From assembly GCF_056746865.1 (NCBI RefSeq), contig NZ_CM163382.1: 64,000 nucleotides of DNA; one strand, written 5' to 3'. Positions 6,886-35,171 of the stretch are shown one piece after another. Both the position numbers and the translations under genes were made by a program. Under the pieces are notes generated by a model, which was given only the letters and a program-made list of their open reading frames with translations, did no database searches and was not told the DNA's origin. Positions within the stretch are counted from its first letter, which is position 1; the number at the start of each line of letters is the position of its first letter.

Positions 6886-7620
6886 ATGTCCAAACTCGAT
6901 CTAAACGCCCTGAACGAACTGCCGAAGGTAGATCGCATTCTGGCGCTGGCAGAAACTAACGCCGAACTGGAAAAACTGGACGCTGAAGGCCGCGTTGCCT
7001 GGGCGCTGGATAATCTGCCCGGTGAATATGTACTTTCTTCCAGTTTCGGCATTCAGGCGGCGGTGAGCCTGCATCTGGTGAATCAGATTCGCCCGGATAT
7101 TCCAGTGATCCTCACCGATACGGGTTACTTGTTCCCGGAAACCTACCGCTTTATTGACGAGTTAACGGACAAACTCAAACTCAACCTGAAAGTGTACCGT
7201 GCTACCGAAAGCGCAGCCTGGCAGGAAGCACGCTACGGTAAACTATGGGAGCAGGGCGTTGAAGGCATTGAAAAGTACAATGACATCAACAAAGTCGAAC
7301 CGATGAACCGGGCGCTGAAAGAACTGAATGCGCAAACGTGGTTTGCTGGCCTGCGCCGCGAACAATCCGGCAGTCGCGCCAATTTACCGGTGCTGGCAAT
7401 TCAGCGTGGCGTATTTAAAGTGCTGCCGATTATCGACTGGGATAACCGAACGATATATCAGTATCTGCAAAAACATGGCCTGAAATATCACCCATTATGG
7501 GATGAAGGATATTTATCGGTCGGTGATACCCATACAACCCGTAAATGGGAACCCGGCATGGCGGAAGAAGAAACGCGTTTCTTTGGCTTAAAAAGAGAAT
7601 GTGGGTTACACGAAGGGTAA
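6886..7620 (+). CDS. cysH: Phosphoadenosine phosphosulfate (PAPS) reductase
   Basis: ORF 6733..7620; start at [15 protein letters not shown] gives 244 aa with the C-terminal ECGLH motif of PAPS reductases. Confidence 0.95.
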
Positions 7621-7637
7621 ATATTGCCGGATAAATT

Positions 7638-7676
7638 AAACGCCTCTGTCAGAAATGATGGGGGCGTTTTTATTTT
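7638..7676 (+). terminator. Probable intrinsic terminator after cysH
   Basis: Stem aacgcc...ggcgtt followed by a T-run (ggcgtttttatttt) about 20 bp after the cysH stop. Confidence 0.4.
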
Positions 7677-7883
7677 GCGAGCAGCATTCCTGATTTTAAA
7701 CGTGAACGCCGCTGGAAGAATTATCAGGTATAGAATGGCGTTGGGTGCTTGAGGCTGTCTGGCGTTAAGCATTCGCGAGGTTCCAGATGGACAAAAGCCC
7801 CAGGCGATATTTCTATCAACCTGAGGCCAGCGTTCGAACCTAAGCAATTCGAATGTTAGTCTCTTCTTTGCAGGGAGGCAAGA

Positions 7884-8036
7884 CATGCTGACAAAATATG
7901 CCCTTGTGGCAATCATCGTACTGTGTTGTACAGTACTGGGATTCACGCTGATGGTAGGCGACTCGTTGTGTGAGTTGAGTATCAGAGAACGTGGTATGGA
8001 GTTTAAGGCAGTTCTCGCTTACGAATCGAAGAAGTA
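7884..8036 (+). CDS. hokX: Hok/Gef-family small membrane toxin (type I toxin-antitoxin locus)
   Basis: 50 aa ORF ([50 protein letters not shown]) with a hydrophobic N-terminus and conserved Cys, typical of Hok proteins; SD ggagg 6 nt upstream. Absent from the ORF track because it is under 60 aa. Confidence 0.6.
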
Positions 8037-8058
8037 GCCACCACGCGGGGGTAAAACC

Positions 8059-9397
8059 CATAAGCGCTAACTTAAGGGTTGTGGTATTACGCCTGATATG
8101 ATTTAACGTGCCGATGAATTACTCTCACGATAACTGGTCAGCAATTCTGGCCCATATTGGTAAGCCCGAAGAACTGGATACTTCGGCACGTAATGCCGGG
8201 GCTCTAACCCGCCGCCGCGAAATTCGTGATGCTGCAACTCTGCTACGTCTGGGGCTGGCTTACGGCCCCGGGGGGATGTCATTACGTGAAGTCACTGCAT
8301 GGGCTCAGCTCCATGACGTTGCAACATTATCTGACGTGGCTCTCCTGAAGCGGCTGCGGAATGCCGCCGACTGGTTTGGCATACTTGCCGCACAAACACT
8401 TGCTGTACGCGCCGCAGTTACGGGTTGTACAAGCGGAAAGAGATTGCGTCTTGTCGATGGAACAGCAATCAGTGCGCCCGGGGGCGGCAGCGCTGAATGG
8501 CGACTACATATGGGATATGATCCTCATACCTGTCAGTTCACTGATTTTGAGCTAACCGACAGCAGAGACGCTGAACGGCTGGACCGATTTGCGCAAACGG
8601 CAGACGAGATACGCATTGCTGACCGGGGATTCGGTTCGCGTCCCGAATGTATCCGCTCACTTGCTTTTGGAGAAGCTGATTATATCGTCCGGGTTCACTG
8701 GCGAGGATTGCGCTGGTTAACTGCAGAAGGAATGCGCTTTGACATGATGGGTTTTCTGCGCGGGCTGGATTGCGGTAAGAACGGTGAAACCACTGTAATG
8801 ATAGGCAATTCAGGTAATAAAAAAGCCGGAGCTCCTTTTCCGGCACGTCTCATTGCCGTATCACTTCCTCCCGAAAAAGCATTAATCAGTAAAACCCGAC
8901 TGCTCAGCGAGAATCGTCGAAAAGGACGAGTAGTTCAGGCGGAAACGCTGGAAGCAGCGGGCCATGTGCTATTGCTAACATCATTACCGGAAGATGAATA
9001 TTCAGCAGAGCAAGTGGCTGATTGTTACCGTCTGCGATGGCAAATTGAACTGGCTTTTAAGCGGCTCAAAAGTTTGCTGCACCTGGATGCTTTGCGTGCA
9101 AAGGAACCTGAACTCGCGAAAGCGTGGATATTTGCTAATCTACTCGCCGCATTTTTAATTGACGACATAATCCAGCCATCGCTGGATTTCCCCCCCAGAA
9201 GTGCCGGATCCGAAAAGAAGAACTAACTCGTTGTGGAGAATAACAAAAATGGTCATCTGGAGCTTACAGGTGGCCATTCGTGGGACAGTATCCCTGACAG
9301 CCTACAAAACGCAATTGAAGAACGCGAGGCATCGTCTTAACGAGGCACCGAGGCGTCGCATTCTTCAGATGGTTCAACCCTTAAGTTAGCGCTTATG
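8059..9397 (+). mobile_element. IS186 (IS4 family) insertion sequence
   Basis: 23-bp terminal inverted repeats cataagcgctaacttaagggttg (8059-8081) and its reverse complement (9375-9397), flanked by duplicated ggggtaaaacc; total 1339 bp. Confidence 0.8.
8108..9226 (+). CDS. insL: IS186 transposase
   Basis: 372 aa ORF filling the space between the inverted repeats; recognised as the IS186/IS4-family DDE transposase from memory. Confidence 0.85.
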   Translation: MPMNYSHDNWSAILAHIGKPEELDTSARNAGALTRRREIRDAATLLRLGLAYGPGGMSLREVTAWAQLHDVATLSDVALLKRLRNAADWFGILAAQTLAVRAAVTGCTSGKRLRLVDGTAISAPGGGSAEWRLHMGYDPHTCQFTDFELTDSRDAERLDRFAQTADEIRIADRGFGSRPECIRSLAFGEADYIVRVHWRGLRWLTAEGMRFDMMGFLRGLDCGKNGETTVMIGNSGNKKAGAPFPARLIAVSLPPEKALISKTRLLSENRRKGRVVQAETLEAAGHVLLLTSLPEDEYSAEQVADCYRLRWQIELAFKRLKSLLHLDALRAKEPELAKAWIFANLLAAFLIDDIIQPSLDFPPRSAGSEKKN

Positions 9398-9419
9398 GGG
9401 TAAAACCCCGCGTATTGAA

Positions 9420-9580
9420 TTGTGATGGTTTGGTCTCCTGCACCCTTTTTTAATTTATATTGTTTATGTGAATATTATGCCTATGTTTATTATTCATATA
9501 TATTACTGATGAAAATTATTTGATTATTCATAATGTAAATATTTTATTGGACGATATATATCACAGATAATTTTTAATAT
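9420..9580 (+). promoter_or_regulatory. Extremely AT-rich cas3 upstream region (likely H-NS-silenced promoter)
   Basis: About 160 bp of more than 80% A+T immediately upstream of cas3; cas promoters in E. coli are known H-NS targets. Confidence 0.35.
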
Positions 9581-12280
9581 ATGCGTAAATATCCTTTAAG
9601 TTTACTGAAGGATAAAAATATTGTGACTTTTTTTGATTTCTGGGGAAAAACCCGACGCGGCGAGAAAGACGGGGGCGACGACTATCACCTTCTTTGCTGG
9701 CATTCGCTGGATGTAGCCGCGATGGGCTATTTAATGGTTAAAAGCAATTGCTTCGGACTGGCTGACTATTTTCGTCAATTAGAGATTTCTGACAAGGAAC
9801 AGGCGGCTCAATTTTTCGCCTGGTTGTTGTGCTGGCACGATACTGGTAAATTTGCCCGCTCATTTCAGCAACTTTACCTGCACCCGAAACTCAGGGTTCC
9901 GGAAGGTGCTAGAAAAAATTACGAAAAAATCTCTCATTCAACGCTGGGCTACTGGTTGTGGCATCATTATTTAAGTGAATGTCAGGAGTTACTTCCTTCC
10001 TCTTCACTCTCTCCCCGCAAACTTACACGTGTAATAGCGATGTGGATGCCCATAACTACCGGGCATCATGGTCGCCCGCCTGACCGTATTGATGAACTGG
10101 ATAATTTTCTGCCTGAAGACAAAGCTGCCGCGCGAGATTTTCTTCTTGAAATCAAACCACTGTTTCCGCTCATAGAGATCCCCGCATTCTGGGATGATGA
10201 TGAGGGCATTGAACTTATAAAACACCTTTCCTGGTATATCTCTGCAACCGTCGTACTCGCAGACTGGACGGGATCGTCAGCGCGGTTTTTTCCACGCGTT
10301 GCACAGGCAATGGATATTAAAGATTACTGGCAGAAGGCTTTAGTTCAGGCTCAAAACGCCTTAACCGTCTTTCCTCCAAAAGCACAAACCGCGCCTTTCA
10401 CCGGAATTAATACGCTGTTTCCTTTTATTGAGAATCCGACACCGTTACAGCAAAAGGTGCTGGATCTGGATATCAGCCAGCCAGGGCCACAGTTATTTAT
10501 TCTGGAAGATGTGACTGGCGCAGGTAAAACGGAAGCGGCGCTTATCCTGGCGCACAGGTTGATGGCTGCGGGTAAAGCGCAGGGTTTGTTTTTTGGCCTG
10601 CCAACAATGGCAACGGCCAATGCCATGTACGATCGACTGGTCAAAACCTGGCTTGCTTTCTATTCGCCAGAGTCCCGCCCCAGCCTGGTGCTGGCACACA
10701 GTGCCCGAACATTAATGGACCGCTTTAATGAATCACTCTGGTCCGGTGATTTAGTCGGGTCAGAAGAACCGGATGAACAAACGTTCAGTCAGGGATGTGC
10801 GGCCTGGTTTGCCGACAGTAACAAGAAGGCGCTACTGGCTGAAATTGGCGTCGGCACGCTGGATCAGGCGATGATGGCTGTGATGCCGTTCAAACATAAT
10901 AATCTGCGGCTTCTGGGACTGAGTAACAAAATCCTGCTGGCTGATGAGATCCATGCCTGTGACGCTTACATGTCATGCATTCTTGAAGGGCTGATCGAGC
11001 GGCAGGCGCGTGGCGGAAACAGCGTCATTTTGCTTTCTGCCACGTTATCTCAACAGCAGTGCGACAAACTCGTTGCTGCCTTTGCGCGTGGTACAGAGGG
11101 CCAGCAAGAAGCTCCGTTCCTGGAAAAGGATGATTACCCCTGGCTGACGCACGTTACGAAATCCGATGTGCATTCACACCGGGTAGCGACGCGCAAAGAC
11201 GTTGAGCGTAGCGTGAGCGTGGGTTGGCTTCATAGCGAACAAGAATGTATTGCGCGTATCGAATCGGCAGTAAGTCAGGGGAAATGCATCGCCTGGATCC
11301 GGAATTCTGTCGATGACGCTATTAAGGTTTATCGTCAGTTGCTTGCCCGCGGCGTCATTCCTGCTTCCAGCCTTTCTCTGTTTCATAGCCGCTTTGCTTT
11401 TAGCGATCGCCAGCGAATTGAAACGGAAACGCTGGCACGCTTCGGTAAAGAAGATAGCTCACAGCGTGCCGGAAAAGTCCTCATTTGTACTCAGGTCTTA
11501 GAGTCGAGCGTTGATTGCGATATGGACGAAATGATTTCCGACCTGGCCCCTGTTGATTTGCTGATCCAGCGAGCGGGGCGATTACAGCGGCATATCCGCG
11601 ATATTAATGGTCAGTTAAAGCGTGACGGAAAAGACGAGCGTTCCCCTCCTGAATTGCTGATTCTGGCCCCCGTCTGGGACGACGCTCCAGGTGACGAATG
11701 GTTCGGCAGTGCCATGCGTAACAGTGCATATGTCTATCCCGATCATGGACGAATCTGGCTGACGCAGCGTGTACTGCGTGAGCAAGGCGCTATTCAAATG
11801 CCACACGCAGCCCGCCTTCTTATTGAATCAGTCTACGGTGAGGACGTGGTAATGCCGGAAGGATTTGCCCGCAGCGAGCAGGAGCAAGTGGGCAAATATT
11901 ACTGCGATCGCGCAATGGCTAAAAAGTTTGTGCTGAACTTCAGGCCTGGCTATGCCGCCAATATCAACGATTACCTTCCGGAAAAGCTGTCGACACGTCT
12001 GGCGGAGGAGTCTGTTTCCCTGTGGCTGGCTACCTGTATTGCCAGTGTGGTGAAGCCTTATGCCAACGGTGCTCACGCATGGGAAATGAGCGTTGTCAGA
12101 GTGCGTCGAAGCTGGTGGAAAAAACATCGGGATGAGTTTTCTTTACTGGAAGGGGAAGCGTTCAGGCAGTGGTGCATTGAACAGCGGAAAGATCCGGAGA
12201 TGGCAAACGTGATTTTAGTTACCGATGACGAAAGTTGCGGGTATTCGGCTATGGAAGGATTGACTGGCAAGGTTGGTTGA
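9581..12280 (+). CDS. cas3: CRISPR-associated nuclease/helicase Cas3 (type I)
   Basis: 899 aa ORF with an N-terminal HD domain (HSLDVAAM...HDTGKF), helicase Walker A (DVTGAGKTEA) and a DExH box (LLADEIH). Confidence 0.9.
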   Translation: MRKYPLSLLKDKNIVTFFDFWGKTRRGEKDGGDDYHLLCWHSLDVAAMGYLMVKSNCFGLADYFRQLEISDKEQAAQFFAWLLCWHDTGKFARSFQQLYLHPKLRVPEGARKNYEKISHSTLGYWLWHHYLSECQELLPSSSLSPRKLTRVIAMWMPITTGHHGRPPDRIDELDNFLPEDKAAARDFLLEIKPLFPLIEIPAFWDDDEGIELIKHLSWYISATVVLADWTGSSARFFPRVAQAMDIKDYWQKALVQAQNALTVFPPKAQTAPFTGINTLFPFIENPTPLQQKVLDLDISQPGPQLFILEDVTGAGKTEAALILAHRLMAAGKAQGLFFGLPTMATANAMYDRLVKTWLAFYSPESRPSLVLAHSARTLMDRFNESLWSGDLVGSEEPDEQTFSQGCAAWFADSNKKALLAEIGVGTLDQAMMAVMPFKHNNLRLLGLSNKILLADEIHACDAYMSCILEGLIERQARGGNSVILLSATLSQQQCDKLVAAFARGTEGQQEAPFLEKDDYPWLTHVTKSDVHSHRVATRKDVERSVSVGWLHSEQECIARIESAVSQGKCIAWIRNSVDDAIKVYRQLLARGVIPASSLSLFHSRFAFSDRQRIETETLARFGKEDSSQRAGKVLICTQVLESSVDCDMDEMISDLAPVDLLIQRAGRLQRHIRDINGQLKRDGKDERSPPELLILAPVWDDAPGDEWFGSAMRNSAYVYPDHGRIWLTQRVLREQGAIQMPHAARLLIESVYGEDVVMPEGFARSEQEQVGKYYCDRAMAKKFVLNFRPGYAANINDYLPEKLSTRLAEESVSLWLATCIASVVKPYANGAHAWEMSVVRVRRSWWKKHRDEFSLLEGEAFRQWCIEQRKDPEMANVILVTDDESCGYSAMEGLTGKVG

Positions 12281-15553: not shown

Positions 15554-15628
15554 ATGAGCCAATATTTGATTTTTCAGCTTCATGGGCCAATGGCATCCTG
15601 GGGCGTCGATGCCCCGGCGAAGGGAACA
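15554..15628 (+). pseudogene. cas5: 5' fragment of cas5 (casD); coding similarity ends after about 25 codons
   Basis: Translation MSQYLIFQLHGPMASWGVDAPAKG matches the Cas5e N-terminus (MxxYLIxxLxGPMxxWG), but the remainder (TIQHHTRPVIARILRVLKSILYTFLYTF...) is non-Cas-like and runs into repeats. No cas6e/cas1/cas2 follow. Confidence 0.6.
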
Positions 15629-33596: not shown

Positions 33597-33718
33597 ACCT
33601 CAGCGTCCTCTACTGTAGTGGCTGTGCCAGCCCGTCGAGGTATACGGTTTTTCGGGAGCGACCCTAGACACAGCTTTTTCTTTCGTCGCTCAAAGTCTAC
33701 TACTGTATACTCAACCAG

Positions 33719-34972
33719 TCATCCACATTTTCCGAACTTGCCATGCACCACGTTGCCGCCCTGTTCCAGTGAGTCCATATAGTCGGCGTACCACTGGAGC
33801 ATCTCGCGCCGCCCGTCCAGATATTGCGCATGATTGTACGTGCCACGAATTGAGTTCTTATCAACGTGTGCAAGCTGCGTTTCTATCCACGCGGTGTTAT
33901 AGCCCTGCTCATGTAAAATCGTGCTCATCGTGTGCCGGAACCCATGACCAGTAACGCGCCCAGAATAGCCAATACGACGAATAAGCACGTTCATCGCCAT
34001 TTCACTCATCGGCTTACTGTGCTGGATTCGACCAGGGAAAATAAACTGATACTGCCCCGTCATGTGTTTTAACTGTTCCAGAATAGCGATCGCCTGTTCT
34101 GAAAGCGGCACACAATGAGGACGGCGCATCTTCATTCGTTCTTTAGGCACTTCCCACAAACGATTATCAAAATCGATCTCCTGCCATTCTGCCTGTCGTA
34201 ATTCCCCTGGCCGGAGCCCTGTCAGAATCAATAATCGCATACCCAGCTTGACGATCTGGCTTCCGGTGTACGTATTAAGAACGCGGAAAAATTCCGGCAG
34301 TTCGTCGGCCTTCAAATAGGCATAATGCTCTTTTTTGTGTGGAGCAAATGCGCTTGCCAGATCTGGTGCGGGGTTATATTCAGCGCGTCCGGTGATGATT
34401 GCGTACCGGAACACCTCGCCGCATCGCTGGCGAACCTTACGCAATTTTTCGGTCGCCCCACGGTCATTAAGACGGGAGAGAACCGCAAGCAACTCCATTG
34501 GCTTAATTTCTGCGATCGGCCTGCCGCCAATGTACGGAAAAACGTCTTTTTCAAACGTCTCGATCATTTCCTCGGCGTATGACGATGACCACCTGTCGAT
34601 CCGCTTTTCATACCATTCGCGAGCGATACCCTCAAAAGTATTGCCAAATTTGCTCGCCTGTTCTCGCTTTTGAGCTTTTCTGGCCTCACTTGGATTTATA
34701 CCACCAGCAAGAAGCCTTTTAGCCTCATCCCTTGCCGCTCTGGCATCAGACAGAGACACATCAGGGTACACGCCCAACGACAACATTTTGGGCTTTCCTG
34801 CAAATCTGTAACGTAGTCGCCACCCTTTCGAGCCGTTCGGCTCAATGAGTAACGAAAGCCCGTTACCGTCATTGAGTGTATAAGCCTTTTCTTTCGGCTT
34901 CGCGCGCCTGATAGCAAGGTCTGAAAGCAGCATGTGTATAGCTCCAAAAAATAAATTTTGTCCTATACGCAT
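33719..34972 (-). CDS. int: Tyrosine site-specific integrase (P4 / CP4-57 IntA family)
   Basis: 417 aa with an N-terminal arm-binding-like domain and a C-terminal catalytic region (HGFRHT, LAHVDKNSIRGTYNH); adjacent to the tRNA 3' end. The true start may be the internal MLLSDLAIRR. Confidence 0.9.
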   Translation of the reverse strand: MRIGQNLFFGAIHMLLSDLAIRRAKPKEKAYTLNDGNGLSLLIEPNGSKGWRLRYRFAGKPKMLSLGVYPDVSLSDARAARDEAKRLLAGGINPSEARKAQKREQASKFGNTFEGIAREWYEKRIDRWSSSYAEEMIETFEKDVFPYIGGRPIAEIKPMELLAVLSRLNDRGATEKLRKVRQRCGEVFRYAIITGRAEYNPAPDLASAFAPHKKEHYAYLKADELPEFFRVLNTYTGSQIVKLGMRLLILTGLRPGELRQAEWQEIDFDNRLWEVPKERMKMRRPHCVPLSEQAIAILEQLKHMTGQYQFIFPGRIQHSKPMSEMAMNVLIRRIGYSGRVTGHGFRHTMSTILHEQGYNTAWIETQLAHVDKNSIRGTYNHAQYLDGRREMLQWYADYMDSLEQGGNVVHGKFGKCG

Positions 34973-35097: not shown

Positions 35098-35171
35098 TGG
35101 AGCGGGCGAAGGGAATCGAACCCTCGTATAGAGCTTGGGAAGCTCTCGTTCTACCATTGAACTACGCCCGC
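35098..35171 (-). tRNA. glyU: tRNA-Gly (anticodon CCC)
   Basis: Reverse complement reads GCGGGCGTAGTTCAATGGTAGAACGAGAGCTTCCCAAGCTCTATACGAGGGTTCGATTCCCTTCGCCCGCTCCA: cloverleaf-compatible, anticodon loop CTTCCCAAG, T-loop GGTTCGATTCC, 3' CCA. Confidence 0.9.

Follow-up and report, generated by a model that had tools for sequence, protein, structure and literature searches.

The window, that is, the whole stretch of 64,000 nucleotides that was analysed, carries a section of the E. coli chromosome in which cysI and cysH (both ending by 7620) are followed by the cysH terminator, hokX, an IS186 element and the type I-E cas3 gene, which starts at 9581. It is essentially certain that the region between cysH and cas3 is the chromosomal hokX/sokX type I toxin-antitoxin locus of E. 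coli with a 3' UTR split by IS186. The identity of every element and the disruption of the locus by IS186 are demonstrated by this analysis. From the upstream boundary to the toxin gene, the locus contains the following features:

7638-7676, plus strand: strong intrinsic terminator of cysH, a 14-bp stem followed by a T-run, taken from the terminator scan; it forms the upstream boundary of the hokX locus.
7731-7736, plus strand: putative -10 box TAGAAT of the hokX promoter; at the homologous position, hokC has TATAAT and hokE TAAGAT.
7743-7884, plus strand: hokX mRNA leader (5' UTR), matched by Rfam RF01794, with the 5' end placed by homology to R1 hok.
7743-7756, plus strand: tac element GGGUGCUUGAGGCU, the first 14 nt of the leader.
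7787-7845, minus strand: SokX antisense RNA gene, 59 nt, by homology to the K-12 ncRNA sokX b4701.
7823-7863, plus strand: Sok-target hairpin of the leader, the third hairpin in the Rfam RF01794 alignment.
7853-7881, minus strand: putative sokX promoter, with a -35 box TTGCCT (7876-7881), a 17-nt spacer and a -10 box TAACAT (7853-7858).
7885-8037, plus strand: hokX coding sequence, 50 aa plus stop, with a Pfam HOK_GEF match and the RefSeq entry WP_000956458.1 'Hok/Gef family protein'.

The arrangement of hokX/sokX with IS186 is already known, ordinary and common, and it contains no new gene. A 'hok sok system' at the cysH-cas3 position, absent from E2-type (K-12-like) strains, was described by Almendros et al. 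2014 (PMC3903273), where an IS186 insertion at the GC-rich boundary of the locus was also reported; the locus and the insertion appear in PMC7232551 as well. Strain WCHEC005784 is 100% identical across 7600-8070, and its RefSeq annotation has the same order of cysH, 'Hok/Gef family protein' WP_000956458.1, 'IS4-like element IS421 family transposase' and Cas3. The known locus (hokX of E. coli B; sokX b4701 of K-12) shares the position, leader, Sok and toxin with the window, and nothing essential differs.

The original prediction placed an unannotated, hokX-like Hok-family ORF of 50 aa at 7884-8036. The ORF is real, although its coordinates were one base off and should read 7885-8037. It is unannotated only in the ORF track used for that prediction; RefSeq annotates it under the accession given above. 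The family assignment was confirmed, with residues 5-46 covering profile positions 1-42 of 42 of Pfam HOK_GEF (PF01848) at 39.1 bits (E=5.7e-10) against a cut-off of 22 bits, the matching RefSeq name, and an identity of 78% to K-12 HokE; the identity to R1 Hok is 41%. The protein of about 50 aa shows the Hok/Gef profile, an N-terminal transmembrane helix, a conserved Cys and a C-terminal AYE motif. Both Cys29 (in SLCE) and AYE at 45-47 are kept across all aligned homologues. The ORF is preceded at a distance of 6 nt by a strong Shine-Dalgarno sequence, GGGAGG at 7873-7878. An identical HokX protein occurs in ST131, O157:H7 and E. whittamii as well as in several further E. coli lineages. A comparison of 14 Escherichia alleles gave 12 synonymous variable sites and 5 non-synonymous ones; the latter all fall in the membrane segment, and none lies within the C-terminal 31 residues. 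The ORF is under strong purifying selection. The close homologue HokE has been reported to be toxic on expression (bioRxiv 10.1101/2025.08.07.668861).

A separate observation concerns the codon for Tyr46 (TAC, 8020-8022). It lies within CUUACGAA at 8017-8024, which is invariant in hokX, hokE, hokC and R1 hok and includes TACG, the context reported for A-to-I editing by TadA. Such editing is stated to recode Tyr to Cys in hok mRNAs in the introduction of bioRxiv 10.1101/2025.08.07.668861. At codon 46 of hokX, it would provide a second Cys to pair with Cys29. The hairpin around this TACG is weak (z=-1.2).

A structured hok mRNA leader is present upstream of the toxin gene. Rfam RF01794 ('sok') matches full-length at 7743-7900 (model positions 1-157 of 157) with 111.7 bits, compared to a gathering score of 59, and it is the sole Rfam match above threshold in the region. 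Since this match lies on the hok sense strand, the model represents the hok leader with its Sok-complementary segment and not Sok itself. The 5' end of the hokX mRNA was set by homology to the +1 of R1 hok mRNA (GGCGCUUGAGG; numbering from PMC9841398). The putative -10 box lies 6 nt 5' of this end, and there is no clear -35 box.

An antisense Sok RNA had been expected upstream on the minus strand, and its gene was placed there by homology. On that strand, 7787-7845 corresponds to K-12 sokX b4701 (NC_000913.3 2887353-2887411), from which it differs by 2 substitutions close to the 5' end; the ends of sokX were carried over from the K-12 annotation. The predicted SokX fold has a long stem-loop between a 5' tail and a U-tail (-22.7 kcal/mol, z=-3.6). 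Its +1 G at 7845 lies 7 nt past the TAACAT -10 box. The putative promoter agrees with the consensus at 8 of 12 positions, which is below the scan threshold of 9, and this region is conserved across the HokE/HokX subfamily. It is plausible that TTGCCT-17-TAACAT serves as the sokX promoter. By homology, the locus has a cis-encoded Sok gene with a terminator-like stem-loop and a putative promoter. A consensus scan of 7600-8120 for promoters and terminators called neither of the two promoters (hok and sok) nor the Sok terminator; its calls were limited to the cysH terminator and one site within the ORF (7888-7916). For this reason, the hokX and sokX promoters are assigned by homology only. We infer the transcription start sites and the expression of Sok in this strain.

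The loop of the Sok-target hairpin, CUAAGCAA (7840-7847), is complementary to the 5' end of SokX. In R1, the 5' tail of antisense Sok attacks the target loop in the same way. The locus varies most in the segment comprising the Sok 5' end and the target loop (7831-7852), where eight strains show three allele types and a 1-nt indel is among the differences. The leader flanks and the toxin ORF beside it are nearly invariant in these strains. Since Sok is cis-encoded, Sok and its target change together, and such joint changes may diversify Sok specificity among paralogues and alleles.

The original prediction also expected an overlapping mok frame upstream of hok, which is missing in its canonical form. 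In hokX and hokE, a deletion has removed the CATATG that serves as mok start in R1 and hokC, where it lies opposite the Sok 5' end, and no overlapping mok ORF leads from the Sok-target region through the hok ribosome-binding site. No ORF with an ATG, GTG or TTG start from the Sok-complementary region reaches the hok ribosome-binding site in the window allele, whose leader contains two short ORFs only:

7787-7843, plus strand: 18-codon upstream ORF, with GAGG 6 nt before the ATG and a TAA stop at 7841-7843.
7853-7891, plus strand: 12-codon mini-ORF, which runs across the hok Shine-Dalgarno sequence to a stop 4 nt inside hok (ATGCTGA).

The ATG at 7787, with its good GAGG Shine-Dalgarno sequence, was considered as a conserved mok start and rejected. 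In K-12, EC590 and ACN001-type alleles, its frame runs uninterrupted through both short ORFs for 34 codons to a TGA at 7889-7891, and in hokE it is in-frame; a TAA ends it in the window allele, and a TAG does so in ST131 and O157. Citrobacter, Klebsiella, Kluyvera and further genera lack the ATG. Because it is not kept outside Escherichia, its ORF does not represent a conserved mok.

The 12-codon mini-ORF lacks an evident Shine-Dalgarno sequence of its own; its ATG is part of the sokX -10 box and is not covered by the Sok duplex. Of 35 distinct HokE/HokX-type leaders, drawn from at least 10 genera, 34 keep a short ATG-initiated ORF crossing the hok start, compared to 49% of shuffles. This count hints at a compact mok substitute but is confounded by shared ancestry and by the use of the same bases as sok promoter and hok Shine-Dalgarno sequence. 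These ORFs take the form of a 12-codon frame ending in ATGCTGA or ATGCTAA, an in-frame N-terminal extension or a 6-codon frame encoding MEATRC. Speculatively, the mini-ORF at 7853-7891 is a candidate for a compact mok analogue. It is conceivable but rather doubtful that the HokE/HokX subfamily swapped the canonical mok for a compact leader ORF, with hok translation still coupled to an upstream ORF and the block by Sok different from that in R1. Since the canonical mok, which is essential in R1, is missing, the regulation of hokX may differ from R1, and hokX might be poorly translated even without IS186.

Downstream of the toxin gene, the locus is interrupted by the insertion element, and its 3' end lies on the far side:

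8043-8059, plus strand: left part of the GC hairpin after the hokX stop, with the 5' arm at 8043-8050, the loop at 8051-8056 and the first 3 C of the 3' arm.
8048-8059, plus strand: left target-site duplication GGGGTAAAACCC, inside the left half of the GC hairpin.
8060-9396, plus strand: IS186, 1,337 bp between the duplicated 12-mers, assigned by Pfam DDE_Tnp_1 and identity to K-12 IS186A.
8059-8081 and 9375-9397: inverted repeats of IS186, 23 bp, perfect (23 of 23 positions).
8114-9226, plus strand: IS186 transposase (DDE_Tnp_1, E=1.6e-26), identical to K-12 InsL1.
9397-9408, plus strand: right target-site duplication GGGGTAAAACCC, on the far side of IS186.
9406-9413, plus strand: 3' arm of the split GC hairpin, on the far side of IS186.
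9432-9445, plus strand: displaced fbi (fold-back inhibitory) element GGUCUCCUGCACCC, which pairs with tac in the empty-site mRNA.
9446-9451, plus strand: T6 run of the hokX terminator, directly after the fbi element.

The earlier proposal that the 3' fold-back is disrupted by IS186 was borne out, with the element inserted in the GC hairpin and fbi moved to its present position. In turn, the proposed extent of the locus, 7700-8036, was too short, as 3' elements are found at 9397-9451. The element is an IS186 of the IS4 family, 99.6% identical to K-12 IS186A, with a DDE transposase (named 'IS4-like element IS421 family transposase' by PGAP), 23-bp inverted repeats, a target duplication and a GC-rich target, GGGGG-TAAAA-CCCC. 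IS186 has been described as GC-specific (PMC3903273). It starts 22 nt past the hokX stop, within the 3' arm of the hairpin. The length of the duplication is ambiguous at 10-12 bp because the termini of the element repeat the flanking bases. Strain Ch1, which has the hokX allele of the window without IS186, was used as the empty-site reference, and the in-silico excision of IS186 together with one copy of the duplication recreates its sequence exactly.

In Ch1, the hokX stop is followed by the hairpin ACGCGGGG-GUAAAA-CCCCGCGU with -18.0 kcal/mol, and then by the fbi sequence and T6. In the fold of the 360-nt empty-site transcript from the homology-inferred 5' end, positions 7743-7748 pair with 9440-9445 and 7751-7756 with 9432-9437, with pair probabilities of 0.93-0.998 for 11 of the 12 tac/fbi pairs. 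Both tac and fbi elements are thus present and the ends pair in the empty-site allele, which is the interaction of the R1 hok model (PMC9841398). Two natural fbi variants preserve the pairing, from G·U to G-C in ST131 and from G-C to G·U in O157. About 35 related loci, belonging to at least 10 genera, share this conserved layout of GC hairpin and fbi, with the fbi equivalent 41-52 nt past the stop. An intact GC-rich 3' stem-loop is found in the empty-site alleles and is split in the window, where the hok-side junction folds at -8.4 kcal/mol. Here, IS186 and one copy of the target duplication separate tac and fbi by an extra 1,349 bp, and fbi and terminator now lie about 1.34-1.4 kb downstream, beyond the element.

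In a set of 5,426 complete E. coli genomes, 5,425 have some match to the hokX region and 4,145, about three quarters, contain the full locus. In the K-12-type allele, the ORF is missing from directly behind its ATG onwards, and only the promoter, the leader and sokX remain. An uninterrupted hokX next to cas3 was found in 2,264 genomes, and an uninterrupted hokX next to iap in roughly 1,100 further ones. IS186 is present at the hokX site in the orientation of the window in 170 genomes, and at the identical site with the same duplication in the opposite orientation in 593, a group exemplified by EC590 and apparently including a B-derived strain. These IS186 counts were obtained with 1-kb queries requiring both cysH-hokX and IS186. 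A shorter junction query (7940-8180) matched 1,730 genomes, with hokE-IS186 junctions cross-matching, and was not used for the counts.

IS186 has hit the same hokX hairpin in both orientations with identical duplications, and the homologous hairpin has been hit in K-12 hokC and hokE. Because Hok loci of many genera retain the GGGG-N(4-6)-CCCC hairpin, the family as a whole offers a hot-spot for IS186. K-12 hokE-IS186B and hokC-IS186A resemble hokX in carrying the element in the homologous GGGG-N-CCC hairpin about 20 nt past the stop and in the organisation of the leader. They are different chromosomal loci, and relative to the window the orientation of IS186 is the same in hokE and opposite in hokC. 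In contrast to hokX, K-12 hokC also has an annotated in-frame mokC from the canonical CATATG. With R1 hok/mok/sok, hokX shares the Hok/Gef family, the antisense Sok, the tac/fbi pairing, the GC hairpin after the stop and the Sok-target hairpin. Unlike R1, hokX is chromosomal, lacks a mok start at the Sok 5' end, has its 3' module split by IS186 and has a shorter leader, with the hok ATG at +143 compared to +174. The R1-type comparator pMTY1886 was used for layout only, and small indels relative to the published R1 numbering account for its mok being in frame with hok.

On the downstream side, IS186 ends 184 bp 5' of the cas3 start codon, with 9397-9580 in between; it thus separates cas3 from upstream sequences and may affect its transcription. 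IS186 at this boundary has been discussed as a driver of rearrangements of the cas-E locus (PMC3903273). The type I-E cas operon of the window is itself cut short: cas5e (casD) starts at 15554, E. coli homology ends at about 15615-15622 and unrelated DNA follows. This cas5e junction (15554-15622) occurs in 0 of the 5,426 complete E. coli genomes. WCHEC005784, which is identical at hokX, instead has the full cas5e-cas2, CRISPR and iap region. The DNA replacing the cas region (15.6-35.2 kb) looks like an integrative island. It carries minus-strand ORFs of 283, 1,129 and 915 aa without a Pfam match, an IS605 OrfB/TnpB, a DUF927 protein and AntA, and it has the following features at its far end:

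33607-33674: int-alpA RNA, adjoining the P4-type integrase.
33722-34972: P4-type integrase of the island.
35101-35171: tRNA, adjoining the P4-type integrase.

Taken together, the best explanation, which we regard as highly probable, is a hokX/sokX locus whose 3' control and stability module has been cut off by IS186 and which is most likely silenced. In this locus, hokX encodes a Hok-family membrane toxin of 50 aa, and the opposite strand encodes the 59-nt SokX complementary to the leader. The uninterrupted hokX mRNA of about 360 nt would work like R1 hok mRNA. The full-length transcript would be kept closed by pairing of the 3' fbi with the 5' tac, the GC hairpin after the stop would shield the processed, active mRNA, and pairing of Sok with the leader would trigger decay. 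The insertion of IS186 in the GC hairpin weakens this hairpin and shifts fbi and the terminator downstream, leaving the toxin ORF, the leader and sokX intact in the window with the 3' module severed. We infer the toxicity of HokX and the loss of function at the locus, and silencing by IS186 is most likely because the hairpin is lost, fbi and the terminator are displaced and there is a precedent in K-12. There, hokC and hokE with IS186 are described as inactivated in a passage of PMC7232551 that cites Pedersen and Gerdes 1999. Chromosomal hok loci without an IS have also been reported as unable to mediate post-segregational killing (summarised in bioRxiv 10.1101/2025.08.07.668861), and therefore IS186 may not be the only cause of inactivity.

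This last point leads to a reading that we consider unlikely, in which hokX is inert regardless of the IS, a decaying, untranslatable relic without a mok frame, and IS186 is a neutral insertion at a preferred target. In its favour are the deletion of the canonical mok start, the stop codons that interrupt the 34-codon frame (TAA in the window allele, TAG in ST131 and O157) and the loss of the whole hokX ORF in K-12, and it agrees with the description of IS186 as GC-specific (PMC3903273) and with the failure of IS-free chromosomal hokA, hokB and hokC to give post-segregational killing (bioRxiv 10.1101/2025.08.07.668861). However, a relic is hard to reconcile with the strong purifying selection and with a HokX protein that is identical from the B2 and E lineages of E. 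coli to E. whittamii. The tac/fbi variants preserve pairing, different genera have retained the hairpin, the fbi and a short ORF that crosses the hok start, and the expressed homologue HokE is toxic (bioRxiv 10.1101/2025.08.07.668861), which all argue against it as well.

Somewhat less probable still is that hokX/sokX continues to work despite IS186. An mRNA without fbi would then always be open, SokX synthesis alone would restrain it, and delayed activation would be lost. The toxin ORF, the Shine-Dalgarno sequence, the leader and sokX are indeed all intact in the window, and the target duplication recreates a partial hairpin, GGGG-UAAAA-CCC, at the junction (-8.4 kcal/mol). Alleles with IS186 also persist in 763 genomes, and the ORF has not decayed further in those examined. 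Nevertheless, the transcript would run into IS186 without a defined protective 3' end, and in R1, toxicity is lost when the last 3' stem-loop is weakened by substitutions, probably via exonuclease decay (PMC9841398). The same insertion in hokC and hokE of K-12, described as inactivated in the passage of PMC7232551 mentioned above, also speaks against continued function. Finally, that the 50-codon ORF is a chance open frame in intergenic DNA and no gene, as might be suspected from its shortness below common cut-offs and from the longer spurious minus-strand ORFs overlapping it (7488-7946 and 7840-8061), has a negligible probability and is refuted by Pfam and Rfam matches far over the curated thresholds, conservation in 4,145 genomes and mostly synonymous variation.

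hokX/sokX is a named member of the best-studied type I toxin-antitoxin family, and the import of the locus lies mainly in correct annotation. In practice, ORF tracks with a 60-aa cut-off overlook hokX, and an Rfam match to 'sok antitoxin (CssrC)' marks the hok leader from the mRNA 5' end to the hok start and not the strand or extent of Sok. [quoted passage not shown] The repeated IS186 hits show how members of one gene family can be disabled again and again by a sequence-specific IS.
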